From a plasmid: DNA of 64,000 nucleotides. How positions within the stretch are numbered: position 1 is the first letter of the stretch; every line of letters begins with the position of its first letter. The translations under genes were made by a program, and so were the position numbers. Under the pieces are notes generated by a model. The model was not told the DNA's origin. It ran no database searches and worked only from the letters and a program-made list of their open reading frames with translations. The stretch is from the sequence record NZ_CP033968.1; one strand, given 5' to 3'. Positions 3,075-53,073 of the stretch are shown here, piece after piece.

Positions 3075-3247
3075 GTATTTTTTCTCCGATAGGTTGGTTG
3101 GACGCAAGTTCATCGTCATGTCCTTGCGCGGAAGGAATGACTCACAGGAAGCCATAACTGGCGTCACGTATATGCGGTTGTCGGGCATCTCAGAGGGTCC
3201 TGCTATGCCGAATCGTCGGCACAACCTTCATTAACGGAGAGATACCC

Positions 3248-3919: not shown

Positions 3920-3993
3920 GCGTTTGCAGTCCATAAACAAAAAGGGCCCGCTTGTGTTACAAGCGGGCCTTCTTCTTTGTCGGTTATCCTGGC

Positions 3994-4668: not shown

Positions 4669-4785
4669 GTGACCCTCCTAGTAACACGTATGTATATTAT
4701 TGCTGGGGTTGATTGTATATGGATTGTCAAGTTTTGGGGAAGTTACCCCGGGGATGTGTGATACGACTGCGCTGTGTGAGAGCTC

Positions 4786-8061: not shown

Positions 8062-8098
8062 AGGAAAAAAATGAAAACGCCCCTTCGGAAAGGGGCGT
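8062..8098 (-). terminator. rho-independent terminator ending the leftward small-gene operon
   Basis: The hairpin acgccccttcggaaaggggcgt is followed on the minus-strand RNA by a uuuucauuuuuuu tract. Confidence 0.6.
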
Positions 8099-9414: not shown

Positions 9415-9954
9415 TTAGCGTTCCGCGGATTCGCCGTCGATCTCGAAGCAATATGGGTTGCTCTCGTCCGTGGAGACTTCCGCGAGGATCGGCTCGCCGT
9501 TAGGCCATGAACCAAGGTTGGCGGAGTTGCCTTGAATACGGTCGAGCAACTTGATTGCTTCCGCCTTGCTGGTGGCCTTGACGCGCACCGCGCAGGACAG
9601 CCGTACATCAAACGCGTACTCGTGAATCTCTGTCGTAGTACCGATGGTCACCGGGTCCGTCGACATGTCGGTCAGTGCGGTCGCAAAGTAGTGACCGTAT
9701 GCCAGCGGATCGGGGTCACTTGGCATCGAAACCAGGAATAGCAGTTCATCGCATTTGGCCAATCCGTTGACCTCCATGCCGACGGCTGCAATGGAGACCC
9801 GTTGGCCGCGGTACTTCTCCAGGTTGGGCAGCTTCTGAATTGCCTCGTCAGAGAAACGAGCCGATTTGAGACTGGCAGCAAATGCAGCTGCCTTGCTCGG
9901 GTCCTTGAAAATGCTGTCTGCTCCGCAGACGAGTTTGTTGCGGGCTTCTGCCAT
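9415..9954 (-). CDS. hypothetical protein (179 aa)
   Basis: AGAGGAGAG lies 4-5 nt upstream. Its 5' region is copy 1 of the duplicated cassette. Confidence 0.55.
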   Translation of the reverse strand: MAEARNKLVCGADSIFKDPSKAAAFAASLKSARFSDEAIQKLPNLEKYRGQRVSIAAVGMEVNGLAKCDELLFLVSMPSDPDPLAYGHYFATALTDMSTDPVTIGTTTEIHEYAFDVRLSCAVRVKATSKAEAIKLLDRIQGNSANLGSWPNGEPILAEVSTDESNPYCFEIDGESAER

Positions 9955-10059
9955 GGATCTCTCCTCTTGAAGGTTGGACTTGCATGAGGCAATGAGACAC
10001 AGGCAAGACTATGTGCCAGCGGAAAGGAAAACGCCCCTCACTGGCTGGCCAGGAGGGGC
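9952..10059 (-). repeat. copy 1 of a ~110-bp intergenic cassette (terminator hairpin + promoter-like segment + RBS + ATG)
   Basis: It is about 80% identical to 10729..10838. It has an identical 24-nt 5' end catggatctctcctcttgaaggtt and an identical hairpin cccctcactggctggccaggagggg with a T-rich tail on the minus strand. Confidence 0.6.
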
Positions 10060-10082
10060 GGGGGAGTTGGGAGGTCAGAGCA

Positions 10083-10253
10083 TCAAGCCGTGTTGGAGGG
10101 CTGGTCGACGCAGAGCTCCTCGAAAGCCGGGCAGCTTTCAACTTCATCTACGTCTTCGGTTGGCCAGTTCTTCGAGCACTGGCTCAACTCTCCAGGCCTG
10201 TACGTGCAGTGCGCGCAGGTCGCGCACAGATCATCATCGGAAATTGAGCGCAT
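10083..10253 (-). CDS. small Cys-rich protein (56 aa), absent from the ORF track
   Basis: Hand translation gives MRSISDDDLCATCAHCTYRPGELSQCSKNWPTEDVDEVESCPAFEELCVDQPSNTA. AAGGAG lies 9 nt upstream, and the cassette hairpin lies 3' of the gene. Confidence 0.45.
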   Translation of the reverse strand: MRSISDDDLCATCAHCTYRPGELSQCSKNWPTEDVDEVESCPAFEELCVDQPSNTA

Positions 10254-10285
10254 TTTTCTCGTCTCCTTGCGTGGTGTTCCGTGGT

Positions 10286-10510
10286 TCAGTGGCCGCCGAG
10301 TAGCGCGGGTTGTGGTTCGGCAGTGAGGCTAGCCTTGTATTGACGGGCAAGCTTGAGGCTGTACGACGCGTTCGCCCGTGTTCTGTCCGCCAGCCAGGTT
10401 CCGGCCAGTTGGCCGCGCGCCCGGTGGATGCGAGCCCAGCGGGCGAGATATCGAGCGTCACGTACGAGCCACTCAATAGCCTCGCGGATTTCAGCCTGAG
10501 TCATGGTCAT
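10286..10510 (-). CDS. hypothetical protein (74 aa)
   Basis: An ORF whose start overlaps the stop of the upstream gene. Confidence 0.45.
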   Translation of the reverse strand: MTMTQAEIREAIEWLVRDARYLARWARIHRARGQLAGTWLADRTRANASYSLKLARQYKASLTAEPQPALLGGH

Positions 10511-10731
10511 CCCCTTGCCTGGTGACCCGGCTCAGACTTGCCCAGGTTGATGAGCGCCGCGCGAAGCTCGTTGTGGTCCATGCGGTTGATAGCTACTTGT
10601 GCCTCGATCTTCCGCTCCAGCGGCAAGAGCGCGTGGATGTTCGCCTTCAAAACCTTGCGCGCCGTTTCGCAGAATTTGATGGCGTCCAGGCCTGCTTGGT
10701 TCGGACTGTGTTGGCTGGGGATTTGTGGCAT
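10507..10731 (-). CDS. hypothetical protein (74 aa)
   Basis: Its start sits inside copy 2 of the cassette, with the same RBS as the gene at 9415..9954. Confidence 0.5.
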   Translation of the reverse strand: MPQIPSQHSPNQAGLDAIKFCETARKVLKANIHALLPLERKIEAQVAINRMDHNELRAALINLGKSEPGHQARG

Positions 10732-10838
10732 GGATCTCTCCTCTTGAAGGTTTATCTTGCAAGAGGCAATGAGACACAGGCGGGACTAAGCGTAGACGGG
10801 AAGGGAAGAAAAACCCCTCACTGGCTGGCCAGGAGGGG
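10729..10838 (-). repeat. copy 2 of the ~110-bp terminator-promoter-RBS cassette
   Basis: See copy 1 at 9952..10059. Confidence 0.6.
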
Positions 10839-10845
10839 GTGGAGG

Positions 10846-11235
10846 CTAGTTGGCAGGTACGATCCGGAGCGTGAAGGTATCCGGAAGCTTTCGCCCGAGG
10901 ATGACGGAGGCGCACTGTCGGAATCGCTCCGACCAGGCTCCGGTTGTTCGGCGCCCGCTAGGTGCGCAGATCTTCCAGGCAGTTTCAATCTGGTCGTGCT
11001 GATCCTGAGTGACTTCGATGATCGAAGCGATTTCCTTCTCAATCCACGCGTCCGCAACTTCCACAGCGCGGCAGCGCGATGATTCGGTTCCCGCCGCGAC
11101 CCAGTCGCCGCCGATTTCGCCTAGGACTTCAAACGTGCCAAGGATTCTGTTGGACGGTACGGCATGGATTACGCGAACGACGATTTCGCCCTCGACGCGC
11201 GAATACACTTCAGTTCGCTCTACTTGGTTCGGCAT
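10846..11235 (-). CDS. hypothetical protein (129 aa)
   Basis: GGGAG lies 7 nt upstream. Confidence 0.5.
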   Translation of the reverse strand: MPNQVERTEVYSRVEGEIVVRVIHAVPSNRILGTFEVLGEIGGDWVAAGTESSRCRAVEVADAWIEKEIASIIEVTQDQHDQIETAWKICAPSGRRTTGAWSERFRQCASVILGRKLPDTFTLRIVPAN

Positions 11236-11350
11236 CAGTTACTCCCTACGGGTTGGTTTGCAGAGGAGTAATGCGGCGCATGTGGGAATAACCGCGGTGC
11301 CGTAGTCGCGGGCAGGGGCACGCTGATGTGCAGGTGCCCGCAGGGCGGAC

Positions 11351-11620
11351 CTATCCATTGCTTCCACTGAACGGATTGGGTGCAACTCCCGGGGGTGCCA
11401 CGGCAACTTGATCTGGCAACGGCCCGGCCTCGAGCGAAGCGACAATCAGGTCGAGGTTTGCTTTCAATGCCTTTGCCATGCTGAGGCCCGCTTTGTCCCT
11501 TGTCAGGTCTAAGCTTCCATAGATGGATACGCGATCAAGGCGGTTCTCGATGGTCATCTCGCCGATGGCTACGACCTCGGACTCGTTTGCAAACGGGCTG
11601 AGCGTTTGTGAGGTGGACAT
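11351..11620 (-). CDS. hypothetical protein (89 aa)
   Basis: The internal start MSTSQTLSPF has an AAAGGA 7 nt upstream and abuts the upstream gene stop. Confidence 0.45.
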   Translation of the reverse strand: MSTSQTLSPFANESEVVAIGEMTIENRLDRVSIYGSLDLTRDKAGLSMAKALKANLDLIVASLEAGPLPDQVAVAPPGVAPNPFSGSNG

Positions 11621-11621
11621 C

Positions 11622-12221
11622 TCAGATCCTTTGTTCGGCCTTGCCGAGCTTTGGGGCGATCGCCTTTGCCTTGGCGACAACGTTGGTCCCGGGAATGAAG
11701 TCGTGCAGGAACTGGCCGTTTGCACTCATCAGGGGGATGAGAAGCAGCAGGCCAGCCACTGCAGCGAGGAAAGCCGGCGAAGCGATGAAGAGGAGGCAAG
11801 TCAGGGTAACCACCTTCATCGCACTTCGCAGCAGAATTTCCCCAAAGCGCAGCTTTCGGTCGGCCGCGCTGCGCGTGGCCAGTCGGAACAGCCACTTGCC
11901 GGGAGTTCCTTCCATCCGCAGCTTGGCAAACATTGATTCGTAGGCCCACCAGATGGCGGGGAGGCCGGCCATCACGTATGGCGCGATACCTCGCGCGATC
12001 GCTTCGTACCAGGCAAAAGTCAGGTGGTCAGCAGGCACACCCGCAAAGATCACCTGCAGCTGCTCGGCTGACGGCATATCCATCATCATCGCCGCTATCC
12101 ACGCTGCACCGATGGTTGCTGCGGCCACTACCGCTGCGAGGATACATGCATCTACGGCATTTGCGCCCAGCCGCCTACTGATGAGCAGGACCCTTGGCAG
12201 GACGTTTCGTTTCGTGATCAT
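11622..12221 (-). CDS. RDD-family membrane protein
   Basis: It has multiple TM segments, and the motif EGTPGKWLFRLATRSAADRKLRFGEILLRSAMK resembles the RDD family core. AGGAA lies 8 nt upstream. Confidence 0.55.
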   Translation of the reverse strand: MITKRNVLPRVLLISRRLGANAVDACILAAVVAAATIGAAWIAAMMMDMPSAEQLQVIFAGVPADHLTFAWYEAIARGIAPYVMAGLPAIWWAYESMFAKLRMEGTPGKWLFRLATRSAADRKLRFGEILLRSAMKVVTLTCLLFIASPAFLAAVAGLLLLIPLMSANGQFLHDFIPGTNVVAKAKAIAPKLGKAEQRI

Positions 12222-13075: not shown

Positions 13076-13587
13076 CGTAATCTGGTCCTCTTTGGCGGCT
13101 CGTACACAGTGCAAGGAGAGATCCCCTGGCCAATGCGTGCAGGAATGAAGTTGGCAAGTTGAGATGCGTCATCGACCCAGCCGGCCAATCCTCCGTTCTG
13201 CGCCACGTTCTGAAGGAATGCCCATTGATCGTCGGTGGGCTCCTTTCCCGGGCGCTTCACTTCCACAGCGAAGAATCGACCATCTTTCAGTTGTCCGACG
13301 ATGTCTGAGACGCCAGGGATAGAGAACCGGACAAAGCGCTTCTGATCCCCTTCGCCGTACACAGCCACGCCTGTGTTCATGCGCATGACCCAAGCAACGC
13401 TGGGATGCTGCTCGAGCAGCTCCATGCATGCCAGCAGTACTTTGGTTTCGCGCGGCGACGGCGGATCGGTCGGCTTCGCTCTCGCCGCCCGCTTCGTGGG
13501 CTTCTCCTGGGGAACCACCGGCGTGCTGGTCTTCTGAGCACGACCGAGCAGCGCCTCGTACTCCTTCTCGCTGAGCCGTTTTCCCAT
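13072..13587 (-). CDS. VRR-NUC domain nuclease (PD-(D/E)XK)
   Basis: SDIVGQLKDGRFFAVEVKRPGKEPTDDQWAFL matches the VRR-NUC core. Its stop overlaps the start of the downstream endonuclease (ATGA). Confidence 0.7.
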   Translation of the reverse strand: MGKRLSEKEYEALLGRAQKTSTPVVPQEKPTKRAARAKPTDPPSPRETKVLLACMELLEQHPSVAWVMRMNTGVAVYGEGDQKRFVRFSIPGVSDIVGQLKDGRFFAVEVKRPGKEPTDDQWAFLQNVAQNGGLAGWVDDASQLANFIPARIGQGISPCTVYEPPKRTRLR

Positions 13588-13589
13588 TG

Positions 13590-14180
13590 CTAGCCGAACA
13601 TGTCGCCAAGTTTTTCCAGTGCTTCGAGCGCTACGGGGTCGATGCTCTGGGGGCTCGCCGGCGCCGGATGCGCGGCTGGGACGGTTCCAGGGTTTGCGGC
13701 AACGGCAATGGCAGGGGGCACGATCGTGGCAGGCGTTTCCGCTTCCTCCATACCCTGCGCGAGAAGTGGTTGGATGGGCTCGACCACTGTTTCGCGCAAG
13801 GGTGGTGGTTGCTCCGCCGGCGCCTCTGCTACCGGAGACGGGGTAGCAGGACGGGCAGCCGGCCGGGCTGAAATTGCGCGGGGCTTCAGCACCCTGGCAG
13901 AGCGTCCCTTGGCGCCTCGGCGCACCTGCTTGTCGTGCGGTGCGGATTCGATGAGACCCCCGGGACCAGCCAGTGCCTCCTCAATGGCGTCATCCAATGT
14001 TCCTGCATCCCGGTGCTTGATGAACCACTGATACAGGACGCCCCGGATGAGAGGGGTTTCGGTCCGGTATGGCATTTCTGCGAGGAACTCCAGAGCCCCG
14101 GGGCAGGTTGCCTCCGCGATCACCAGGTTGATGCGCCGCTCCGGTTCGTCTGGGTCGAACACCCGGATGAGCTTAGGCAT
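13590..14180 (-). CDS. hypothetical protein immediately downstream of the parM-like gene; possible ParR-type adaptor
   Basis: The assignment rests on position in a parMR-like arrangement only. There is no motif evidence, and the C-terminal half is Pro/Ala-rich. Confidence 0.45.
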   Translation of the reverse strand: MPKLIRVFDPDEPERRINLVIAEATCPGALEFLAEMPYRTETPLIRGVLYQWFIKHRDAGTLDDAIEEALAGPGGLIESAPHDKQVRRGAKGRSARVLKPRAISARPAARPATPSPVAEAPAEQPPPLRETVVEPIQPLLAQGMEEAETPATIVPPAIAVAANPGTVPAAHPAPASPQSIDPVALEALEKLGDMFG

Positions 14181-15201
14181 CTACGGTTTCCTGTTGGCTC
14201 TGCCGCTTCATCGCTTGGCGCAGCGCCACGCCCATGCCGTAACGGCCGAAGCCATTGGCTACTGACATGCGGGGGTTGTCAAGGAGAATGCAGTGCGACC
14301 ACTTCTTCTTGATTTCCTCATAGAGCAGCGGGGCGCCACCGCCGGCCAGGATCACGCCGTGCAACTTCCGCACGTCCATGGACAGCAAGGAGTCGGCCTT
14401 GGCGTTGATCTTCTGGGCAACGTGCGAGACCGCCTTTGCAACTTCTTCGGAGATGTCGATTTCTTGACCAAACTGCAAAATCGATTTGGTCCGGATCGCG
14501 GTTTCGCACTCGATGAGATTCGAGTGAATCCCGCGGCCATCGAGAATGCGTACCAGATGCTCCGCGGCGAAATTCAGCCCTTCGCATGTGCCGGCGCCGC
14601 GTTCAACGTACTGCCCTTCGAGCATCAGCAGAAAGTCGGTCGTGAAGTGGCCGACTTCGATGACAGCCCAACTCTTCGTCCGCCCGGATGCGTCAGTGAT
14701 ATGACTCCGGATCGGGAGCCCCTTTTCGTCGAGGTAGAAGTCGCAATACGCGCCCATCGGTTGGGGCAGGACCCGCATCTCGGCCTTAACGACACGTTCC
14801 GTGACCTCTTTGAGCCGAGCTTGCTGGGAAGAGAACAAGTTCGCTGGGGTACCGATCACCAGAAGCGGCTTGTCGAGGCCCGGAACCCCCATGGCTTCAA
14901 AGCGCTTCATGGTCGAGGCGACCAACACCTGGTACTCGGGGGTGTTGATCCAGTCGTTCGACAGGCCGGCATTGGCGCCGGGGCTGCCCTGCAACCGAGC
15001 AGTGTCGCCCGTGAAGAACTGCTTTCCCTCGATTTCGACGGTTTCGATGGCGGCTCGTCGAGCGGTCGTCTCGTCGGAGATCCCGATGGCGGGCGAGACG
15101 ATGGAGGGGAAGGTGAGGGGGTAGGACTCGCCTTGGGCAAAGGCGACGGCCTTGACGGCGCTACGGCCCACGTCGAGGCCAATGATGGTTTGGGTCAGCA
15201 T
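14173..15201 (-). CDS. parM: actin-like segregation ATPase (ParM/StbA family)
   Basis: The N-terminus IIGLDVGRSAVKAV is the phosphate-1 motif of actin-fold ATPases, and the protein is of ParM size. I chose the internal start MLTQTIIGLDVG; the track ORF extends to 15345. Confidence 0.75.
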   Translation of the reverse strand: MLTQTIIGLDVGRSAVKAVAFAQGESYPLTFPSIVSPAIGISDETTARRAAIETVEIEGKQFFTGDTARLQGSPGANAGLSNDWINTPEYQVLVASTMKRFEAMGVPGLDKPLLVIGTPANLFSSQQARLKEVTERVVKAEMRVLPQPMGAYCDFYLDEKGLPIRSHITDASGRTKSWAVIEVGHFTTDFLLMLEGQYVERGAGTCEGLNFAAEHLVRILDGRGIHSNLIECETAIRTKSILQFGQEIDISEEVAKAVSHVAQKINAKADSLLSMDVRKLHGVILAGGGAPLLYEEIKKKWSHCILLDNPRMSVANGFGRYGMGVALRQAMKRQSQQETVDA

Positions 15202-15436
15202 GAAATTCTCACAGTGCAGAGTCGAAAAGGCCCCGCAACCGGGGCCGGCCACCGATGCGCAATCCGCTGTGCGCAATGTGTACTGCTCATTGTTCACTGC
15301 AGATACCGCACCTGTTACGCGTCCGCATTTTAGAATACATAACACGTATTGACAAGACGACTGTAGCGAACGGAGAATTGCCCCCCCGGGGTTGTTTACG
15401 CAATGTGATAAGCAACCCCCAAAGGACGCTTAATAC
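15202..15436. promoter_or_regulatory. divergent control region upstream of parM; candidate centromere/promoter
   Basis: It contains direct repeats of GCGCAATGTG/ACGCAATGTGA, two G/C hairpins, and the AACACGTATTGACAAG motif. Confidence 0.35.
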
Positions 15437-15961: not shown

Positions 15962-17522
15962 GCTAAGCGGGATCAATGCCGACCAAGGCCCTGGTGCAGA
16001 GACTGTGCCGGGGCTTTTTCTTTATGGGTAGCGAGTGTCTCGGCCGGGCCGGATATTGGGCGAAGATTGGATTGAGGCGGACGTAGAGGAGATAGCTGCC
16101 AGGCGGAGGTCCTGTGGGGAGTCGGGATTTCTGCCACGCGGGGTATTGGGCGGAGGGAGTCCTGGGCTCTGTGCGATGGGAGACGGGACTGGCTCTGGCG
16201 GGATCTCGGGTTTGGCCTGTTCTGCGGCTTTGCGTAGTGCGCTGTTCTGCGGGCGGGTGGATGGGCTGGTTGTCTCACTCTGCCGACCGGTGGTCGTTCT
16301 CTCGCCTGCGCGGGTGTCCGCCTTGTTCCCTTGTTCTCTCTCTGTCCGATTGGGCGGCCGGTGGTCCTGTGCTTGTTGCGGTGGGGCGGGGAGGTAGCCG
16401 GCGATGGCTTGGTGCGGAGTGAGCTTGGGCGCGGAGTGAGAACTTCGGTTGGCGGTGGCTTGGGTTTGGTGTCCCTCGGCGGCCCGTGGTCCGCCGGAGG
16501 CTTTGGTGTCGCCGGCGCATCAGCGCGGGCCCCGTGAGGGGCTATGGTTCTGCCGACGGGATAACTATTTGTCCTGCCGGGGCTCGTTCTGGTGGTGTGC
16601 GGGCTGGGCTTGTGCGCCCTCCTGCGTCGGGGTTGTTGCGCCGCCGTGAGCATAACCATTTGTCCTCTTCCTTCCTTGTGTCGCCGCGGGATCTCGCTCC
16701 CTGTTCTTCCTGAGAGCCGGGTGCGCTGCTGCTGTCCTGCTGCCGGGGCGGGATTGGGCTGCTCCTTCTTGCCCGGTCATCTCTCACCGGAACTGTGGAT
16801 GGGATCGAATGGATCTAATGGATGAAGGGGAGGGGCGGCCGGTGTCGTTCTGCCGATGGCGTGTCGGGGAGCCGGGTGGATCTGTCGGCGGGGCGGAGGT
16901 CTTGGGCTGGGGTGGTTGTTCTGCTGGCGTGGGAATGGTGCTGGTGGTGGATGGTTGTGGCGCTGGGTGGCTGGTTCTGTCGGCGGGGGATCGGGTGGAG
17001 CGGCGTTGTGCTGGCGGGAGACTGATGGTGTTGGTTCTGAGAGTGGCGGCGGTGCGGTGGTGGTGTCAGGCGGAGTGAGAAGTTTCGCTGGCGATGGTGC
17101 GAGAGAAGTCGGGTATGAGCTCGGATCGAGTGGGGCTGGTGTATCGGCAGGCGATGGCGTGGGTGAAGTCGGGTATGGGCGGGGCGGGGGCGGGAGATTG
17201 GCTGGCGATGGCGTGTTGCGGTGTGGTTGTTGGGCAGGCGGTTGTTTTGGCCGTGTGGGGGAGGGCTGGCGTACCTGGTGCCGTAGCCGCCGGCGCCGTG
17301 GGGGCGACGCCCGGCGAAGCCGGGCTGGGGTGTTGCCCCGGGGTAAATGTTTGGCCGGAGGGCTTCTCTTGGGCGCTCCCCTGTGGGTAAATGGTTGCCC
17401 CTGCTACCGGGTTCTATGACCGGCGTCGGTGAGTAAATGCTTGGCCGTTGCTGTTTCGCTGGTCTGGGTGCGGTGTATGTTGGTGTTGCTCTACCCATGC
17501 GTAACACGTATGCATAATTTGC
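15962..17522 (+). repeat. ~1.5 kb non-coding GT-skewed repeat-rich tract
   Basis: The top strand is roughly 50% G, 30% T, 13% C and 5% A. Imperfect direct repeats include GCGATGG(C/T)G at least 5 times, gttctg(c/t)(c/g)g at least 6 times, ATAAC(T/C)ATTTGTCCT twice and GTAAATGNTTG(G)CC four times. Only low-complexity P/R/H- or G/W-rich ORFs occur in any frame. Confidence 0.55.
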
Positions 17523-17551
17523 TTGATTGATCTAAGTACTGTGCGTATGAT
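17523..17551 (+). promoter_or_regulatory. sigma70-like promoter for the membrane/helicase operon
   Basis: TTGATT and TATGAT are separated by 17 bp, just after the AACACGTAT motif. Confidence 0.45.
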
Positions 17552-17588
17552 GGGTATAAATGGTTGGCCACATATGAAGGGGTATGAG

Positions 17589-17858
17589 ATGCGTACGAAG
17601 GTGAAGGTTGGTCTGATGATTGGAGGTGTCGTGCTGGTAGCAGCGGCGATCGTGCTGGCGCCCGTGCTGCGCGACCTGCCTTGGCTGAAGTGGACCCTGT
17701 ACGTGTGCGCTGCACTGATGCTGTCCCCGCTGTTCATGGGCGGTCTCGTGGACGTGCCCGCCACCACCCCGGAAGATCCGACCTTCGAAAAGAATCGCAT
17801 CGGCGATGCAAGGCAGGACGTCTGGGGGTTCAACGGCCAAGACAGCAACAACGACTAA
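17589..17858 (+). CDS. small membrane protein (89 aa)
   Basis: GAAGGGG lies 8 nt upstream. The N-terminus MRTKVKVGLMIGGVVLVAAAIVLA is followed by a second hydrophobic segment. Confidence 0.5.
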   Translation: MRTKVKVGLMIGGVVLVAAAIVLAPVLRDLPWLKWTLYVCAALMLSPLFMGGLVDVPATTPEDPTFEKNRIGDARQDVWGFNGQDSNND

Positions 17859-17893
17859 GCGCGGCGAAACTGGAAAGGATGAAAGGGGTCGAG

Positions 17894-19687
17894 ATGAGCA
17901 AGGCTACGCACGAACAACTTACCGCGATCAACAGCGCCGTCCGTCGCCTGGTGGTCCAGGCCTGCCCGGGTGCCGGCAAGACGTTCACCCTGAGGGAGTA
18001 CGCCCTGGTGCGTCCCTCGGAGCGCATCCTGTACCTCACCTACACGAAGTCTCTCCAGACTGAAGCCGAGGGCAAGTTCCCCCAGAACGTCGAATGCCGC
18101 ACCACTCACTCCCTTGCGTGGTCGTTCGGCCGTCGCTTCAAGGACGCCGGTAAGCTGGGCGACCTGCGCCCGAGCGACTTCGCCCGCGCCTTCGGCATCG
18201 AGATCGGCTTTGCCAGTATCCTGGTGACGACTGTCACGAGCTTTCTGTTCTCCGCGGATACCGACTTCGAGCCGCACCATGTGCCGGACACGATCGCCGA
18301 GGCAGATGTCGCTGAGACCCTGAAGTGGGGCCGGCTCGCTTGGGAGGCCATGCAGGATCTCGGCCGCAAGAACGTTCCCATGCCCCATGACGGCTATCTC
18401 AAGCTGTTCCAGCTTTCGAAGCCGGACCTGTCGCGTCGCTACGATCGCATCCTGTTCGACGAAGGCCAGGACGCCAACCCGGTCACGACCTCGATCGTTC
18501 TTGCCCAGAATTGCCCTGTGGTGATCGTCGGCGACCGGTATCAGGCGATCTTTGCCTTCCGGGGTGCCGTCAATGCCATGGACATGATCCAACCGGATGA
18601 AACGGTCTACCTCACCCAGAGCCATCGCTTCGGCCCTGGCATTGCCCGGCTGGCCACGATGCTCCTCTCCGCGTTCCGCGGCGAAGAGCGACCTGTGTAC
18701 AGTGCCTTCCCGGATCGGCCGACTGGCTACACGGTCGACGTTTCCAAGCCGTACGCGGTCATCGGCCGCACGAACGCCAAGCTGTTCGACAAGGCTGTCG
18801 CCATGCTGGGCAACAAGCGTCTGCACTTTGTCGGTGGGCTCAGTAATTACCCATTTGACAAGTTGGTGGACGTTTGGAACCTGATGAGCGGCCAGCCGGC
18901 CGCCGTCAAGGACCAGTTGCTCAAGACCTTTGGTTCGCTGGAGAAGCTCGAGGAGTACGCGACGGGCGTTGACGACAAGGAGATTCTCTCCCTGATCGGT
19001 GTGGTGAAGGAGTACCGCAGCGCGATCCCGTCGCTGGTCGAGAGGATCAAGGCGGAAGCAGTGGAACAAGCAGAGCACGCTGACGTTCTGCTCTCGACGG
19101 CCCATCGTGCGAAGGGTCTCGAATTCAGCCAGGTACTGCTGCTCGACGACTTTGAAGACTTCGTCACGGCCAATGGCGAGCTGCTGACTCTGGATACGCC
19201 CGAACTGGTCCAGGAACTGCACCTGCTGTTCGTGGCACTCACCCGAGCCGAGGACGTTATCGAGCTCAACGCCCAGATGCAGGACATCATCGCGATCCTA
19301 GGGGATCGCGTGCCTGAAGCTCAGCCAACCCCGGGCGAGAGGAGCACCGAACAAGTGGGGGAGCAGCTTGGCCAGATTCCGGGTTTTGATTACGTGCCGG
19401 TTGTGTATACGTGTGATGTAGCGGAAAATGTCACACGTGAACAAAAGGCACCGGTGGTCGCGCTGGCGCAAGTGCCGGTTGGTGCTGGCACTGACATTGA
19501 GAAATCGGTGGAGCTGGCGATCCTCCGGCAAGGCCTCCTCCACGTTCCGCGGCTGGCGCAAGAGGTTGGCGTGAGCCGCGAGGTGATGGCGGATGTCATC
19601 GTCGAGATGATCCGGAAGGGCCTGCTGGCCGAGTCGCTCTTCCTGGGTAGCCCGGAAGTAGTCAGCCGGCTGCGGGTGGCTGCGTGA
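17894..19687 (+). CDS. SF1 UvrD/Rep-like DNA helicase
   Basis: It carries Walker A GAGKT, a DEGQD box and QSHRFG, and is UvrD-like throughout. AAAGGGG lies 8 nt upstream of the ATG at 17894; the track ORF from 17681 overlaps the previous gene. Confidence 0.8.
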   Translation: MSKATHEQLTAINSAVRRLVVQACPGAGKTFTLREYALVRPSERILYLTYTKSLQTEAEGKFPQNVECRTTHSLAWSFGRRFKDAGKLGDLRPSDFARAFGIEIGFASILVTTVTSFLFSADTDFEPHHVPDTIAEADVAETLKWGRLAWEAMQDLGRKNVPMPHDGYLKLFQLSKPDLSRRYDRILFDEGQDANPVTTSIVLAQNCPVVIVGDRYQAIFAFRGAVNAMDMIQPDETVYLTQSHRFGPGIARLATMLLSAFRGEERPVYSAFPDRPTGYTVDVSKPYAVIGRTNAKLFDKAVAMLGNKRLHFVGGLSNYPFDKLVDVWNLMSGQPAAVKDQLLKTFGSLEKLEEYATGVDDKEILSLIGVVKEYRSAIPSLVERIKAEAVEQAEHADVLLSTAHRAKGLEFSQVLLLDDFEDFVTANGELLTLDTPELVQELHLLFVALTRAEDVIELNAQMQDIIAILGDRVPEAQPTPGERSTEQVGEQLGQIPGFDYVPVVYTCDVAENVTREQKAPVVALAQVPVGAGTDIEKSVELAILRQGLLHVPRLAQEVGVSREVMADVIVEMIRKGLLAESLFLGSPEVVSRLRVAA

Positions 19688-19808
19688 TGGTTTCCCAGGA
19701 GGGATGGCTGGTTGCGGCACCCGCGTGGCGTCGCCATAGCCGTCGGTGGCTCCTGAAGGTGGAACATCTCATGTCGTTGGATTGGTCAAGTTTCGGAGAA
19801 TTGGGACG

Positions 19809-20213
19809 ATGAAGAACAAGGTCCGAGCACTCACCGAGCAGCAGGCGAAAGAAGTCTGGGCGATTCTCGTGCGCTGCTGCGGCGCACGAGATGTCGTCAC
19901 GACGGCCGCAATCTTTGCGCGGCTCATGTCCGGTTGCACAGTCCCCATCCGATGGACGTTCGATAGCGCCAATGGCAGCGCGGTGTTCTGCGCTCCGGAG
20001 ATGCGTGTCATCCCACGGGTGTCCATTCCGACCGGCACCTGGGTGGCGATGCTCCTGCGGGCGAACGAAGAGCTCTCTTTCATCGTGCCCGCCGGCGCCG
20101 AGATCGACTGCCGCTCGCTGGCGGAGCTCGCTTCGTGTGACCGGACCCAGGCCGCGGCGTCACTGGACGCACAGGGGGCAGGGGCTCAAGCCACTGCGCG
20201 CGTCGCAATCTGA
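19809..20213 (+). CDS. hypothetical protein (134 aa)
   Basis: An internal ATG lies 18 nt after the GGATTGGTCAAG motif; the track start is a GTG at 19746. Confidence 0.45.
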   Translation: MKNKVRALTEQQAKEVWAILVRCCGARDVVTTAAIFARLMSGCTVPIRWTFDSANGSAVFCAPEMRVIPRVSIPTGTWVAMLLRANEELSFIVPAGAEIDCRSLAELASCDRTQAAASLDAQGAGAQATARVAI

Positions 20214-20243
20214 TTTTGACGTTTGGTCAAGAAACCAAGAATC

Positions 20244-20774
20244 ATGAGCTCCATTGAACTTCATACTCGCTGCGGCCTAAAGTGCGTTCGTCTCGGCGGC
20301 GGCTGGTACTTCAATCCGAAGGTCAGCACGCAGGGCTTCTGCTACGTCGGCGATTCGACGGCACCCGATACCGAGATCGGCCCCGGCAGTCGCTACTACG
20401 GTCCCGACGTATGGGAGTCCAAAGACGGACCCATGTACGGGCGTGAACTACTCAAGGTTCGCCCGGTGCACTGGGATGCATGGTTTGCCGGTCACCTCAA
20501 CGAAGCATATGGCGGCGATCGCCAGTACGACCGCATGAAGGCGTGGCCTGCGAAACTCGAGCTCACCGATGCCGGGCGCGACAAGGGGCTCCACGAACTG
20601 GATGGCCTGGTGGTGGGCAGCGAGGAAGAGTTCGTTGCTCGCCTGAAGTTCTTCGCCCAGGTGCCTGCCGTGGCAGTGCGCAAATCGGGTGTCACCGAAC
20701 AGAAGGGCGCTTTCCCGCGACCGAATCCAGTCGTGGCAGTCACGTCCGCTGCGTGGCTCGGCGCCCAGCTCTGA
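20244..20774 (+). CDS. hypothetical protein (176 aa)
   Basis: The ATG lies 14 nt after the GACGTTTGGTCAAG motif. The track start is a TTG inside the motif. Confidence 0.5.
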   Translation: MSSIELHTRCGLKCVRLGGGWYFNPKVSTQGFCYVGDSTAPDTEIGPGSRYYGPDVWESKDGPMYGRELLKVRPVHWDAWFAGHLNEAYGGDRQYDRMKAWPAKLELTDAGRDKGLHELDGLVVGSEEEFVARLKFFAQVPAVAVRKSGVTEQKGAFPRPNPVVAVTSAAWLGAQL

Positions 20775-20831
20775 CGATGGCACATCTGGATTCGACGTTT
20801 GGTCAAGTCGGAACGGGTTTGGGGGGATTCG

Positions 20832-21395
20832 ATGGAAAGGCTTGATCACGAGCCATCGAGCCGCACGGCGCGGAAGGCGCAACGGCTGCTGTCATTGGGT
20901 TTGCCAAGCGACGAGACAGCAGGGCGCCGAGGTGAATCCCGGAGCGCGGCCTGGCCTGTCGAGCCGGACCCCGCCGCGATCGACCTCGCAAAGGGGATTC
21001 TCGGTGCCCGATTCGAGGCGGACCACAAAGACCTGAATGCCATGCAGCGGGCCGCGCGAGATGCAGGGCTCGCGTTCGAGCTCACGCTCTTCGGCCCGGA
21101 TGCAGCGGATGCGAGGTGCGTTGTCACGGAGGTGGCGGCATGGAACCTGCGCATAGCGCCGGCGGCGCGAATCCATCGACGGATTGGCGCCTTGTCGCGG
21201 AAGGTGAGCAGATCGGTCGCCGCATCGGTTGCTCGTGTAGACCCGACCACCCTGGGCGGCCGTGGGGCAGCCGGCCGTCAGCGCGATCACAGCCGCGCTG
21301 CAGAAGGCCGCGCCATCCTGCGCGGCCAGATCGCCCGGCTTGAGGCCGAACTCACTCGGCGAGCAGCTGAGTCGTCAGCGGACGACCAGCGATGA
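20832..21395 (+). CDS. hypothetical protein (187 aa)
   Basis: The ATG follows GGGGGGA, 25 nt after the GACGTTTGGTCAAG motif. The track start is a TTG inside the motif. Confidence 0.5.
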   Translation: MERLDHEPSSRTARKAQRLLSLGLPSDETAGRRGESRSAAWPVEPDPAAIDLAKGILGARFEADHKDLNAMQRAARDAGLAFELTLFGPDAADARCVVTEVAAWNLRIAPAARIHRRIGALSRKVSRSVAASVARVDPTTLGGRGAAGRQRDHSRAAEGRAILRGQIARLEAELTRRAAESSADDQR

Positions 21396-21436
21396 TCGCC
21401 CGTATCCAATTCTGCGAGATCAACGGAGAACGAAGC

Positions 21437-22012
21437 ATGCCGCGCACCACCACCGAACGCCCACGCATCGACGCGCTGTACTTCGGCGAACGCCTGGAGC
21501 GCGTGCTGTCCGGCATCCACCGTTACACGCCGGCGGAGCTAGCCCGCGAGTTGACCCGCATGGCCATGGTCGCCGCTCCGGACATTGCCGTGAGGGAAAT
21601 CGAAGAGCGCCGCGCGTCGATCGGTAGCGCCGCAGCGGACGCTCCGCCGACAGAAGCTTGCAGCGAGGACGGCGTGGCCACGACCGAGGCCGCGTGTGCC
21701 GATCCGAACGGCACCGCGCTGCGCAAAGCTGTTCTTGCGGGTTTGGTCAAGCTGGGCCACGAAATCGACGATGACCGCGTCACCATCTACCGGGCAAAGG
21801 AGGATTCGGGCAACGCGCTTCACCAGGTAACCGAGGCGATCGTGAGTGCGGTGAGCGCCGTTCTCGCTCGAACGGATCTGGTATGCCGGCCGGCGTCCTA
21901 CGCAAGCCTGTTTGAAATGGACTTCGGCAATGCGGAGATCGTGGCGCTCTCCCGAGACGGGGAAAAGCAGGGCGCCGTACAGGCCGCGGCAGCCGTGGAG
22001 GCCGGACGATGA
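21437..22012 (+). CDS. hypothetical protein (191 aa)
   Basis: GGAGAA lies upstream of the internal ATG. Confidence 0.5.
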   Translation: MPRTTTERPRIDALYFGERLERVLSGIHRYTPAELARELTRMAMVAAPDIAVREIEERRASIGSAAADAPPTEACSEDGVATTEAACADPNGTALRKAVLAGLVKLGHEIDDDRVTIYRAKEDSGNALHQVTEAIVSAVSAVLARTDLVCRPASYASLFEMDFGNAEIVALSRDGEKQGAVQAAAAVEAGR

Positions 22013-22803
22013 ACCACAATCTTTCGCCGAAGCCAGTGCCGGCGATTGCCGTTCTGAGATGGGCACGACAGGCCGGGGACCTGATTCGTCGCGGCTTCAT
22101 CGCCTGGGTGGCGCTGATGGCTGTGTTCTGCATCGCCGCCAGCCTGGTCCGGACATCCGTCGTGCTGGCCACCGTGTTGTCTTCAATGGCGTTCCTCTTT
22201 GGCATTCGCGTCGCTGCACTTGTTGACGACACATCGGAACGCACGATCGGTGAGATGGTGGGCGTGGTAATGGGCGGGTTTGGCGTGACACTGCGCTACG
22301 CGGGTGTTGTCGTACTCACGGTGGCCGTACTGAACGCGCTGCCGGCGCTGCTGCTCGGCAACATCACGGCCGCCTTGCGTCCATTCCACAACCCGGGCCT
22401 GCAGTCGATCTGGAGCGCCACCGACACGTTCACCGCGATCAACGAAATGTTCGTTCTGCCGATCGCAGGAATGCTGATGTTCCTGTGCTGCTTCATCATG
22501 CCGCTCGTGGCGTCGACCTTCCAGTACCACCTGATCAGCTTCTTTGGCGTCAACTGGCGTCAGGCGTACCGAACCGGTCGAGCGGGGCTGCCGCGCATGA
22601 ACATCGGCGCCATCTTTGGCTTCTACCTGGTTGCCTTTGGACTTCTCGCCCTGACGGTCGCGTTCGCGCCGATCGCGGCGCCGGTAGTCTTCGCTTTCCT
22701 TTCCGCCTTCTCGTACGTCGCGTTCCGAGAGATCTATCTCGGAATCGGCACGAATCGGAAGGTCGCCCTGGCCGAGTTGCGTGCCGCGGCTTCCTTTACC
22801 TAA
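22009..22803 (+). CDS. polytopic membrane protein (264 aa)
   Basis: Its start overlaps the upstream stop (ATGA), and it has 6-7 hydrophobic segments. Confidence 0.6.
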   Translation: MNHNLSPKPVPAIAVLRWARQAGDLIRRGFIAWVALMAVFCIAASLVRTSVVLATVLSSMAFLFGIRVAALVDDTSERTIGEMVGVVMGGFGVTLRYAGVVVLTVAVLNALPALLLGNITAALRPFHNPGLQSIWSATDTFTAINEMFVLPIAGMLMFLCCFIMPLVASTFQYHLISFFGVNWRQAYRTGRAGLPRMNIGAIFGFYLVAFGLLALTVAFAPIAAPVVFAFLSAFSYVAFREIYLGIGTNRKVALAELRAAASFT

Positions 22804-22819
22804 CAAACAGGAGATCCTC

Positions 22820-23047
22820 ATGCATGCAGGACAAGTCAGTATGTCCAACGGAGTCACCATCGACGTGGTGCAACAGGAAACCGGTGCCGTTTTGCTCGAG
22901 TTCGGACGAGCAGGGAACTACACGGGTTTGCTGATGGCGGGCAATACCCGTGACGAGGTCCTCGCCAAGCTGGGTGAGCTCACTGCCTTGGTCGCCGCTC
23001 TGCCGCAGACGGCGCAGGCGGAAGAGCCCGCTCTGGCCGGTGCCTGA
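22820..23047 (+). CDS. hypothetical protein (75 aa)
   Basis: AGGAG lies upstream of the internal ATG. Confidence 0.4.
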   Translation: MHAGQVSMSNGVTIDVVQQETGAVLLEFGRAGNYTGLLMAGNTRDEVLAKLGELTALVAALPQTAQAEEPALAGA

Positions 23048-23100
23048 CGGCGGCCGGTCAACCACCAGAATCCAGAAGAGACCGCGCAAGGGAGCGGGCC

Positions 23101-23469
23101 ATGGCCAAAGACGATTTCATCCGCATCAAGTACACCCGCGAAGTCGACGGGCGCAAGAAGCGCAGCTCGGTTTCCGTGGACCCAGACCTCTTCGAGATCT
23201 TTGCGAAGATCCGCGGCACTGTTCCGGCAGCTCGCGCAGTGCTGCGTGAATGGGCGGTTGCGGTCGACGCGGACCGCCAGTGGCAGGATGGCCTGGGTGT
23301 CGATGGCGGCATCGGCCTTTCTCGCATGGTGCAGAGGCGGATGTTCTCCGAGATCAACACGTTCGTCGACAAGGGCATGGTGGTGATCCAGAAGGAGGAT
23401 GCGGATCTGCATCCGAACGCCCCGCGTCCGACAAGGAGCGCGGCCCGCCGGCGGAGTGTCTCAGCCTGA
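23101..23469 (+). CDS. hypothetical protein (122 aa)
   Basis: GGGAG lies upstream. Confidence 0.5.
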   Translation: MAKDDFIRIKYTREVDGRKKRSSVSVDPDLFEIFAKIRGTVPAARAVLREWAVAVDADRQWQDGLGVDGGIGLSRMVQRRMFSEINTFVDKGMVVIQKEDADLHPNAPRPTRSAARRRSVSA

Positions 23470-23484
23470 GTGAAGCTTATCGGC

Positions 23485-23513
23485 TTGACAACATTTACCA
23501 CTCACGTATTATA
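23485..23513 (+). promoter_or_regulatory. strong sigma70-like promoter for the long rightward operon
   Basis: TTGACA and TATTAT are separated by 17 bp. ACGTAT overlaps the -10, and ATACGTGTTATTA lies just downstream. Confidence 0.5.
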
Positions 23514-23549
23514 CATACGTGTTATTAATCTATTTTCAGGATTGCGGCG

Positions 23550-23932: not shown

Positions 23933-24331
23933 ATGAAACCGCAAGAACTGGCAAAAAATCCGGCAGGACAAGACCAAATTGCACGAGCGCGGGAGCTTTG
24001 CGATGGATCTCTAGCATTGACCGCACGGTTGTCTGCGCTACTGAGGACGAAACCGACACGAGGGCAGATGCTCGACTTTCTCGAAGAGTTGAACAAGTCG
24101 GCAAAACAAACGGCGTACGAGGAAGGCATCAAGCGCATCTGTGAGGCGGTCGGCATCCTGGAGCCGTCTCCACAAGACAGGCTCATGGCTATGCAAGTAG
24201 GCATGCTTCGCGAGCAGAACGAGTTACTGCATCACATTGCAACCGGCGTTGGCGCGATTCCGAAAGACAAGCCACTTAGCTTCACCGGTGCGGTAGGCGC
24301 GGCGATTGTTGGCACCCTGCTCACACGCTGA
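23933..24331 (+). CDS. hypothetical protein (132 aa)
   Basis: It follows the preceding ORF's stop with no gap. Confidence 0.5.
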   Translation: MKPQELAKNPAGQDQIARARELCDGSLALTARLSALLRTKPTRGQMLDFLEELNKSAKQTAYEEGIKRICEAVGILEPSPQDRLMAMQVGMLREQNELLHHIATGVGAIPKDKPLSFTGAVGAAIVGTLLTR

Positions 24332-26140: not shown

Positions 26141-26198
26141 CTAGCCGCACAGTCCCGATAAACTACCTAAGTCCGCTAACTGATTCCCCTTTCAACGT

Positions 26199-27020
26199 AT
26201 GCATACGTGTAATGTAGCGAATAGTGGTCAACAAGCGGCGCCGGTGCAGGGTCCAGTGGATTTGGATGCGACCAGGCGCGATGCCGCCAATCTTCCGCCC
26301 GAATGGCAAAGCGGGGTGATTGCCCTGGCGGAAGAACTGGCTGGGGCACGAGCCTTGATCGAGAACTCGAGCAAGGATGCGGTTGACGCTGCCGCGTATC
26401 GTCGAATCAATACCCCGGAAGTGGCGCACTTCGTGCACGCTTCGTACAACGAGGCGATGCACCAGCGATTGCGCTGGGGGCCTGCGCACGACATGGCCAA
26501 GTCCAATGAGGACTGGTATGCGCTCCTGGGTTACCTCGCCGGCAAGGCGCAACAGCCTGACATCCCGCTCGATAAGCGCCTCCACCATGTCATCGCGACG
26601 TCCGCGGCCTGCTTTAACTGGCACGGGGTCCTGACGGGCAGTTGGTCGGACCGTGAAGCCGCCGATGCCCTCGAGCGAGCGCGGACCCAACCCCGAGGCC
26701 CCATCCAACACTCCCTGAAATGTGACAGTGAAGTCTTCAACGCCGTTGCGGACGGGCGGAAGACGCATGAGATCCGGTTCGACGACCGTGATTACAGGCT
26801 AGGTGACGTACTGCTCCTCAAGGAGACTGTCTACTCCGCTGCGGAAATGCAGACCGGAGCACCGGTGCTCTTCACAGGGCAGGAGATCTGGCGAGTCGTC
26901 TCGCACGTGCTGACGGGATACGGCCTTTTCCCGGGTTGGGTTTGCCTCTCCCTTGAGTCCCCGAACACAAAGCGGGCCGCGCTGGGCCCGGACACCGCAG
27001 CGAATTCACCGGAGGCTTGA
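26199..27020 (+). CDS. ASCH (PUA-like) domain protein; the start is uncertain
   Basis: The C-terminus EVFNAVADGRKTHEIRFDDRDYRLGDVLLLKE resembles an ASCH domain. The first ATG lies inside the ACGTATGCATACGTG motif. Confidence 0.55.
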   Translation: MHTCNVANSGQQAAPVQGPVDLDATRRDAANLPPEWQSGVIALAEELAGARALIENSSKDAVDAAAYRRINTPEVAHFVHASYNEAMHQRLRWGPAHDMAKSNEDWYALLGYLAGKAQQPDIPLDKRLHHVIATSAACFNWHGVLTGSWSDREAADALERARTQPRGPIQHSLKCDSEVFNAVADGRKTHEIRFDDRDYRLGDVLLLKETVYSAAEMQTGAPVLFTGQEIWRVVSHVLTGYGLFPGWVCLSLESPNTKRAALGPDTAANSPEA

Positions 27021-33760: not shown

Positions 33761-33766
33761 CGCGTA

Positions 33767-33795
33767 TTGATAAACACACTGTTTGCTTGTTATAG
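33767..33795 (+). promoter_or_regulatory. candidate promoter after the AACGCGTAT motif
   Basis: TTGATA and TTATAG are separated by 17 bp. Confidence 0.35.
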
Positions 33796-34258
33796 TCAAG
33801 TCACGCGCGGTTTTTGGTGTTGCATTGGTCGCTGCCGATATGTGTGGGTTTGAAGTCGTTCAAGATCCCCGGCTTTTGGCCGTTTACCGGCATTGGGGCA
33901 TACCAGAGACTGCGAAGGACGGCCTTGGGGGCGTCGCATGGTGGGCAGGCGTGGTTGCGGAAGTCGCTGCCGTGATTCGGGCGAATAACGTGTCAGCCGC
34001 CGTCCAGGCAGTCCTGTTGTGGCACGCGGATCAGAGGTTGGCGAGACAGCGAGGGCAGCGACCTCGCGCGTTCGACGTGCCGCCCGAAACTCTCAAGGTG
34101 CGCGGTGTGTTCTGGAGGAACCTGCTCAATGGGAGCTTCCTGATGTTCATCGTAGGCTCTATTCCCTGCTGCATTGGGTTGTTCTTCATCAAGTTCGAGA
34201 ACAGCCCGAAGCGATAGCGATATCGCGGGCGGCCGGGCATTTAAGGAGGAAACTTCGG

Positions 34259-52945: not shown

Positions 52946-53073
52946 TTTCCCCTCCGAAGGCGAGCGCAACGCACTCGGGTACTACCGGCTCCCGGCCGGT
53001 GCGGTGTGCTCCAATACAGGCACAGCGAATACAATACGCGTATTGTTACCTGTTATTGTAAATTTCGTCAAGT

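Follow-up and report, generated by a model that had tools for sequence, protein, structure and literature searches.

The 64,000-nucleotide stretch of plasmid record NZ_CP033968.1 analysed here (hereafter the window) contains a 23-nucleotide (nt) repeat ahead of consecutive genes in a same-strand array downstream of a UvrD-type helicase gene. We found that this 23-mer belongs to a two-box element at gene junctions that is conserved across plasmids independently of the coding sequence around it. Box 2, the start-proximal part, lies directly 5′ of the Shine-Dalgarno sequence, and Box 1, the upstream part, matches the origin repeats (iterons) of a group of RepB-type megaplasmid replicons. We tentatively interpret Box 2 as a start-associated control site for the downstream cistron and Box 1 as an extra-origin initiator site that is an orphan in this plasmid, a combined reading that we favour while holding it at somewhat less than even confidence.

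The repeat and its two boxes

The two 23-mers, TCTGATTTTGACGTTTGGTCAAG at 20209-20231 and TCTGGATTCGACGTTTGGTCAAG at 20785-20807, are identical at 20 of 23 positions without gaps. As a sequence-only reading of the window had described, they lie in the gaps before the genes starting at 20244 (30 nt) and 20832 (57 nt); the distances of 14 and 25 nt to the ATGs given there were measured here as 12 and 24 nt. Both contain the exact 14-mer GACGTTTGGTCAAG, which has no other occurrence in the window, and a 19-nt pattern allowing up to three mismatches matched twice in the window against 0.01 matches expected from shuffled sequences. Two such near-identical copies exceed chance by far. The related string reported before the start at 19809 was also recovered, as the weaker relative GGATTGGTCAAGTT at 19779-19792, with 18 nt between its GTCAAG and the ATG. 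The motif thereby occupies three of the ~28 gaps in the array. The elements and the genes around them are as follows.

19750-19792, plus strand: site A, a decayed bipartite element, with Box 1 remnant CTCCTGAAGGTGGAACATCTCA at 19750-19771 and Box 2 variant GGATTGGTCAAGTT at 19779-19792
19809-20213, plus strand: g1, hypothetical protein of 134 aa, with site A upstream
20209-20231, plus strand: site B, the first 23-mer, with Box 2 core CGTTTGGTCAAGAA at 20220-20233 and the g1 stop codon (20211-20213) inside the element
20244-20774, plus strand: g2, hypothetical protein of 176 aa, with Box 2 (site B) before it and the iteron-type Box 1 (site C) after it
20768-20809, plus strand: site C, the full bipartite element, with Box 1 GCTCTGACGATGGCACATCTGG at 20768-20789 and Box 2 CGTTTGGTCAAGTC at 20796-20809
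20832-21395, plus strand: g3, the cistron downstream of site C
14460-14482, minus strand: copy inside parM, GATTTTGCAGTTTGGTCAAGAAA, matching site B at 21 of 23 positions and running in the sense direction of parM

Two features went beyond what had been noticed from the letters: the minus-strand copy in parM and the presence, in sites A and C, of an upstream half, Box 1. At site C both boxes are intact; Box 1 there includes the g2 stop codon TGA, and Box 2 forms the 3′ part of the second 23-mer. Site A has degenerate versions of both, and its Box 1 varies among close relatives (GGAAC, GGCAC, GGCACG). Site B carries a Box 2 with a position weight matrix (PWM) score of 19.9 and an inverted repeat, TTGAC-N5-GTCAA, and lacks an intact Box 1, the corresponding bases (GTCGCAATCT) coding for the g1 C-terminus. 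The Box 2 consensus, GTTT(G/A/T/C)G(T/A/C)CAAG(A/T) or in short form GTTT-R-GTCAAG, is the motif reported previously, and that of Box 1 is C-T-(A/G)-A-N4-R-Y-GGCACAT(T/C)T, starting at or near the upstream stop codon. The 23-mer is thus the half nearer the start codon, made up of Box 2 and a lineage-specific spacer, of a junction element co-oriented with the genes. The proteins encoded downstream of sites A, B and C are mutually non-paralogous, so the repeat did not arise by gene duplication.

Homologs of g2 were detected by tblastn on the pBVIE01, Caballeronia, YI23, SFA1 and M701 plasmids (~47% identity). A closer homolog (61%), likewise with Box 2 upstream, is encoded on the plasmid of Cupriavidus sp. 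TMH.W2 (pTMH.W2_2, NZ_CP193795.1; L009), which also has a g1 ortholog (45% identity) with Box 2 upstream and related intergenic elements ahead of consecutive genes. The alignment of the L009 and window DNA is confined to the g2 core; Box 2 is kept at three orthologous junctions, at 45-61% protein identity, where the surrounding intergenic DNA has been randomised. After g2, four lineages (the window, L009, pBVIE01 and Caballeronia) keep one arrangement without variation, the stop codon, 3 nt and then TGGCACAT of Box 1, although they differ in all else, the protein C-termini included. Among four Cupriavidus plasmids, 43 nt around site B are identical where the g1 protein is only 90-93% identical. 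Because these positions are kept while the flanking proteins (only 42-61% identical between plasmids) and the flanking DNA diverge, the boxes are conserved independently of the coding sequence. The alignment of homologous loci that the sequence-only reading had proposed as a check, together with the unrelated downstream proteins, thus bears out its view of the element as non-coding.

The position of Box 2 is likewise regular. At 13 junctions in four plasmids its end is separated from the start codon by 6-24 nt, or in a single case by 37 nt (12-24 nt in the window; 6-21 nt, and once 37 nt, in the other plasmids), and it stays start-proximal even in gaps of 121, 296 and 490 nt. It is always co-oriented with the downstream gene and immediately precedes the Shine-Dalgarno sequence, whereas the nucleotides that separate it from the ATG change rapidly, even from one close relative to the next. 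In Cupriavidus the two boxes are 22-24 nt apart; in Burkholderia the distance is ~18 nt or undefined. Since the copies of Box 2 are read in different frames, the constraint lies on the nucleotides. The TTG-initiated extensions of the open reading frames (20223, 20799) do run through the element, as had been pointed out, and the Prokaryotic Genome Annotation Pipeline (PGAP) places the g3 start at TTG 20799 in one record and at the ATG in another; for annotation, ATG 20832 is to be favoured over TTG 20799.

The boxes were not found in distant g2 homologs of tight operons (28% identity) or in pM7012, and a metagenome search for g2 relatives gave no result. The junction element is confined to the gaps of the g1/g2-family accessory cluster downstream of a UvrD-type helicase gene on pMOL30- and pBVIE01-type megaplasmids. 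On distant plasmids (L010, 5992-8307; L011, 5992-8301) the g2 homolog stands in a tight operon directly 5′ of a DNA cytosine methyltransferase gene, a context that would fit an early-expressed anti-restriction or leading-region module.

When a complete 198-kb relative was scanned, copies of Box 1 and Box 2 were found only at sites A, B and C and in parM, and none in antisense; the 64-kb window, too, has no intergenic copies other than these three. A plasmid-wide regulon and a small RNA (sRNA) gene were rejected on these grounds. The copy in parM codes for the conserved ParM segment SILQFGQEI with A/T-ending codons that are unusual for this genome, and as a targeted match it is very unlikely to have arisen by chance. 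In Burkholderia parM, no matching motif was found at the equivalent position, and hence no co-variation with the 23-mer; a functional link of this copy is doubtful, as it encodes a conserved ParM peptide and Burkholderia parM has no matching variant. Dispersed repeats, that is repetitive extragenic palindromes or miniature inverted-repeat transposable elements, are defined by many copies, and integron attC sites by an imperfect palindrome of at least 57 nt with RYYYAAC...GTTRRRY ends. The element has no dispersed copies, spans ~40 nt, lacks palindromic arms and matches the core site only partially, and both identities were discarded.

Box 1 and the iterons of RepB-type replicons

A short-query BLAST search with a Burkholderia copy of Box 1 returned matches in unannotated DNA of Pseudomonas and Stenotrophomonas megaplasmids. 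On the P. aeruginosa AR19438 plasmid, the match falls in a 1.85-kb stretch upstream of a RepB-family initiator gene, which holds ~20 copies of CTA(A/G)C-NN-RTGGCACA(T/A)TT in both orientations. The YI23 plasmid has more than 20 copies of ACTAA(A/C)-NN-TGGCACATTT(C) upstream of rep, again in both orientations, and their sequences are identical to those of the gene-cluster copies. By their architecture, the origin repeats of the two plasmids are classical iterons, at which Rep would be expected to bind; the two Reps are 42% identical. From these matches, Box 1 is identified as a copy of the origin iteron of RepB-type replicons represented by pBVIE01, YI23, Caballeronia and the Pseudomonas megaplasmids. 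YI23 carries the cognate Rep and the matching origin array on the same replicon, and its replicon type is common to pBVIE01 and Caballeronia p2, which suggests that these two also have a cognate Rep and a Box-1-type origin.

An iteron PWM was derived solely from the origin repeats of YI23 and the P. aeruginosa plasmid, 35 in all, and applied to the gene-cluster copies. With it, site C scored 21.7, the highest value in the window, which was reached by 4 of 1000 shuffles and lies within the range of the true iterons (12.8-32). The cluster copies of L009, pBVIE01 (L003; 21380-22070) and Caballeronia (L005) scored 24.6-31, and site A was at noise level (13.7). In the Box-1-bearing lineages (three lineages), an iteron follows the g2-family gene in all four such genes, and the Pseudomonas plasmid has four high-scoring extra-origin iterons in gaps of the same helicase-downstream array. 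The start of rep itself is preceded by co-oriented iterons, so an iteron just upstream of a gene start is also rep's own layout; in addition, an inverted iteron overlaps the rep -10 element.

Extra-origin initiator sites are known to act by titration in plasmids and on Vibrio cholerae chromosome II (PMC3937223). On the latter, the RctB titration sites lie ~40 kb away from the replication origin (PMC3937223, PMC5397158). Box 1 is comparable in matching the ~20-nt direct repeats beside rep in the cognate plasmids and in occurring as small groups of copies tens of kilobases from the origin (at 55 kb for YI23 and ~40 kb for the Cupriavidus relative), with tandem pairs among them. It differs in that its copies are placed one at a time in the narrow intervals of a co-oriented gene array, where they overlap the stop codon before them and always follow a g2-family gene, and in that the window plasmid has no cognate initiator; binding by Rep and an effect on copy number are predictions here. 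In plasmids with a cognate Rep, Box 1 would serve as an extra-origin binding site for the initiator, comparable to titration or handcuffing sites, and might affect copy number; it may also make the expression of the neighbouring gene Rep-dependent.

In the window plasmid itself, several observations weigh against a working Box 1 and so against part of the interpretation that we favour. The Rep of the window family is only 22-23% identical to those of YI23 and Pseudomonas, and the family's own origin iteron differs in sequence, ATGGTGCAAT-N3/4-TTGG(T/C)CCGCA(A/G); the window elements do not score with PWMs of this pMOL30-family iteron. Site A is decaying, and the whole block is absent from pMOL30 without obvious harm. 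No second Rep was detected in the window or in the complete 198-kb relative, and the short-query BLAST search returned no Cupriavidus record among the plasmids with Box-1-type arrays. Because the plasmid uses a different Rep and iteron, the Box 1 copies are orphans here, and with no cognate Rep, no PWM match to the plasmid's own iteron and a decaying site A, a local function is doubtful. Box 1 in this plasmid, intact at site C and decayed at site A, is probably vestigial. At the origin of the related record NZ_CP026546.1 (L012; regions 10815-11690 and 13470-14600), at least 16 pMOL30-family iterons with ~38-nt spacing lie upstream of rep, and the interval from parB to rep holds ten parS-like TTTTCACGGTGAAAA palindromes, which are found in the origin region of YI23 as well.

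The same facts could be extended to both boxes, which would then be functionless relics: remains of an iteron cluster and of translation-initiation regions, inherited or recombined together with the g1/g2 block from a pBVIE01-like ancestor. We regard this as rather unlikely. The missing cognate Rep and Box-1-type origin in this plasmid family, the decaying Box 1 at site A, the deletion of the block in pMOL30 and the origin of g3 as a deletion remnant would all agree with it, and the close relatives are too alike (95-97%) to show selection within the family. Against this stand the three junctions at which Box 2 has been kept between the window and L009 in otherwise randomised intergenic DNA, the 43 identical nt at site B beside diverging g1 proteins, and the absence of breakpoints from the elements.

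Possible roles of Box 2

Box 2 was not present in the three origin regions examined and cannot be aligned with the iteron. The idea that it represents half of the iteron used by the plasmid itself was rejected: TTGGTC is common to both, but the PWM score is at background. Its regular position suggests that Box 2 most likely sets the expression of the downstream cistron at translation initiation on a polycistronic transcript. It would act in cis on the helicase-operon transcript, directly 5′ of the Shine-Dalgarno sequence, and the translation of the next cistron would be set by whatever reads it, be it a sequence-specific protein, a sequence-specific small RNA or the ribosome itself. At sites A and C, the short frame that Box 1 opens ends on the downstream ATG or just past it. 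Every Box 1 holds TAA or TGA, and in 16 of 20 copies an ATG or GTG comes 2-3 nt after this stop. The frames opened there behave in four ways: some run in-frame into the next gene, some end at the TAA of the next Box 1, some have a stop that overlaps the start as ATGA (site A and L009 4509), and that of site C stops 11 nt past the ATG.

Beside the points on Box 1 given above, four further observations count against this interpretation. The RY before GGCAC gives ACG or GCG in 4 of 20 copies; as these copies have no start codon there, stop-restart coupling in a strict form was rejected for Box 1. Any element in a short gap is necessarily near a start codon. No nucleic-acid-binding domain was found in the neighbouring proteins. 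Finally, no sign of structure or covariation was obtained: RNA fold z-scores ranged from -1.5 to +1.1, no better than shuffles. A mini-hairpin in Box 1, RTG-GCA-CAT, was paired in 85% of cells compared with 84% in shuffles, with one compensatory change, and Rfam gave no match at E<=1. The secondary-structure prediction that the sequence-only reading had proposed as a check thus gives no support for a structured RNA.

The internal promoter that it had also suggested fared no better. For sigma-70, the sole match at site B (TTGACG-18-AATCAT) overlaps the ATG with its -10, leaving no usable -10, and site C has none; for sigma-54, TGGCAC is present, but GC follows at N8 instead of N10 (GG-N8-GC). 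An alternative sigma factor might instead use Box 1 (GGCAC/GGAAC) as a -35 and Box 2 (GTCAAG) as a -10, in the manner of the GGAAC-N16-TCAAA promoters of extracytoplasmic-function, RpoE-type factors. In Cupriavidus, the distance from GG(C/A)AC to GTCAAG, 22-24 nt from start to start, is promoter-like, and site A has GGAAC. The Burkholderia spacing is, however, 5-6 nt shorter, most copies of Box 2 have no Box 1, and a transcript beginning after GTCAAG would lose the Shine-Dalgarno sequence or start right beside it. The identity with the origin iteron moreover accounts for Box 1, and neither a sigma factor nor an RNA polymerase was detected among the nearby proteins; a plasmid-encoded polymerase or sigma factor reading the motif was rejected for the latter reason. 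With no sigma-70 match and the wrong sigma-54 spacing as well, we consider such a promoter very improbable.

A different kind of RNA-level signal would be an RNase E-type cleavage site (AC/AUUU in Box 1) or an sRNA target whose seed pairs with GUUUGGUCAAG beside the ribosome-binding site. The element is in the sense orientation in every transcript, the parM copy included, sRNAs typically target sites immediately before the Shine-Dalgarno sequence, and Box 1 holds a string similar to RN/WUU, the RNase E consensus. That consensus is, however, too loose to account for conservation over 11-20 nt, the iteron identity explains Box 1 better, and the complete 198-kb relative has no antisense copy or candidate sRNA gene. 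We give this explanation little credence.

Box 2 could also act as a DNA operator, either as a transcription roadblock of stoperator type or as a partner of Rep bound at the adjacent iteron, recognised by a plasmid- or host-encoded protein. We judge this unlikely. Its partner, Box 1, is a putative protein-binding site at the DNA level; Box 2 is asymmetric, of a single orientation and placed in short intergenic gaps; site B holds the inverted repeat; the sense-oriented copy within parM could be a further site; and the GTCAAG ending is reportedly like that of the L5 and Bxb1 stoperators. The inverted repeat, however, is lost in the other copies, and three copies with none elsewhere in 198 kb are unlike a regulon or a stoperator set. 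The spacing between the boxes shifts by ~6 bp between lineages, a variation that a fixed protein complex on duplex DNA would not easily accommodate. A roadblock needs no proximity to a start codon, yet Box 2 remains start-proximal in long gaps. Nor was a candidate regulator found among the neighbouring proteins: Pfam, PHROGs and NCBIfam scans of ~25 of them yielded no repressor homolog. The earlier suggestion of a binding site on DNA or mRNA, or of a processing signal, thus still stands as a candidate in general terms; it was too narrowly drawn in taking the 23-mer, half of a bipartite element, as the unit.

Finally, both boxes could belong to one circuit in which Rep, bound at iterons at the stops of g2-family genes, and a second factor at Box 2 couple the expression of the cluster to the initiator level or replication state. 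Rep would then double as a regulator at gene junctions, and the orphan sites of the pMOL30 family could be cross-read by its diverged Rep. We consider this circuit quite improbable.

Plasmid context and known systems

Sequence identity assigns the window to a pMOL30-family megaplasmid of Cupriavidus metallidurans. Positions 17000-23500 are 100% identical to plasmid p1 of C. metallidurans BS1 (NZ_CP037902.1; 364 kb, MPF_F/MOBP, rep_cluster_332) and 95-97% identical to three further Cupriavidus plasmids, and pMOL30 has part of the region. A single-base indel separates the window from NZ_CP037902.1 between ~14300 and ~19700, where the locus offset changes from 3001 to 3000. The surrounding features are as follows.

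14173-15201, minus strand: parM
15962-17589: unannotated strand-skewed stretch of 1.6 kb
17589-17858: small gene
17879-19687: UvrD-type helicase gene
Downstream of the helicase gene: same-strand run of hypothetical genes, g1, g2, g3, g4, g5 and onward

Two deletions have affected the array. pMOL30 lacks window positions 19480-22692, 3.2 kb from within the helicase gene to within g5; its junction (L002, ~8072-8077) shows 5-nt microhomology, and the helicase C-terminus is altered. An 895-nt deletion created g3 of the window (window 20832-21395 compared with L004 6817-8274), which is a fusion of the first ~19 codons of a DEDD-type 3′-5′ exonuclease gene with a downstream gene; the exonuclease gene is intact in C. 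campinensis MJ1. A role of the boxes as recombination linkers was rejected: both sets of breakpoints (pMOL30, 19480-22692, and g3) lie away from the elements. There is thus no evidence for the boxes as recent recombination linkers, although the gene order around them differs between lineages.

The strings at 4716, 33770 and 53062 that had been listed as further variants of the motif do exist (at 4721-4735, 33792-33805 and 53064-53075), but at chance level, GTCAAGTY being found five times in the window with 3.45 occurrences expected. These three GTCAAGT strings adjoin sites of a second, unrelated motif family, AT-rich palindromes of ATACGTGTTA/ACGTAT type that overlap or abut strong sigma-70-like promoters. 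Sites of this family lie at 15327-15378, 23485-23521, 26195-26214, 4685-4702, 33751-33767 and 53027-53048 of the window and at ~16230-16260, ~19950-19990 and ~24130-24170 of pBVIE01 (L003); the promoters beside them include TTGACA-16-TATTAT at 23485 and a divergent parM promoter. The palindromes look like operators of a plasmid global repressor that would divide the gene array into operons.

Further repeats and a non-coding candidate were noted in the window. The stretch at 15962-17589 has a GC skew of +0.28, an AT skew of -0.32 and imperfect 54-60-nt repeats, with counterparts at L019 ~2650-4430 and L003 ~9720-11670. The PLSDB gene table, which omits pseudogenes and RNA genes, lists no gene in it, and its long open reading frames give low-complexity Pro/Arg/Ser translations without homology between plasmids; the equivalent on the Pseudomonas plasmid holds one high-scoring iteron. 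It could be a non-coding region linked to the origin or to transfer. A ~125-nt repeat (9933-10058 and 10710-10838; 79-93% identity) spans the start regions of two genes on the minus strand; a GC-rich hairpin (CCCCTCACTGGCTGGCCAGGAGGGG) lies within it. The open reading frame of 524 aa at 46504-48078 has four internal repeats at the DNA level, with units of ~200-400 nt and a recurring ...HGDRYDY... motif.

Literature searches by sequence and by topic gave no result. Among known systems, the closest functional analogy to Box 2 is with the start-associated sequences (SAS and extended SAS, ESAS) of Cluster K mycobacteriophages, reportedly described by Pope and colleagues in 2011. Both are short conserved motifs just upstream of the starts of unrelated co-oriented genes, sometimes with a second conserved element at a variable distance upstream and with a function presumed to be translational. 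The sequences are unrelated, so that the likeness is one of function and not of membership. The ribosome-binding site is itself part of SAS, which is found at 10-20 genes in each genome, whereas Box 2 lies 5′ of the Shine-Dalgarno sequence at 3-6 junctions of one proteobacterial plasmid cluster.

The stoperators of Cluster A mycobacteriophages, said to have been reported by Brown and colleagues in 1997 and by Jain and Hatfull in 2000 (L5, GGTGGMTGTCAAG; Bxb1, GTTACGWDTCAAG), resemble Box 2 as asymmetric ~13-nt sites of one orientation in short intra-operon gaps, ending in (G)TCAAG. They number 20-35 per genome and have a known repressor, whereas here there are three copies, no repressor homolog was found among the ~25 neighbouring proteins scanned, and the host phylum is another; the common GTCAAG is most likely a coincidence. 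A phage origin, or identity with Cluster A stoperators, was rejected, as no phage match to the stretch was found, the window is plasmid DNA and the copy number is far too low. The PeSL mobile regulatory cassettes of T4-type phages, reportedly described by Arbiol and colleagues in 2010, are likewise repeated regulatory units among small uncharacterised genes in a plastic region of varying gene order. PeSL units combine an early promoter with a stem-loop, whereas no promoter, stem-loop or recombination breakpoint was found at the junction element. The element is a genuine, conserved variation on extra-origin iterons and start-associated motifs.

For the window itself the message is modest: the repeat is real and conserved, an orphan iteron makes up half of the element, and the variants listed from elsewhere in the window amount to noise. 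More broadly, the megaplasmids of Cupriavidus, Burkholderia and Pseudomonas carry long arrays of uncharacterised genes whose regulation is uncharted. That initiator-binding sites recur in three lineages at specific gene junctions, 40-55 kb away from the origin, points to a connection of replication control with the expression of an accessory module.

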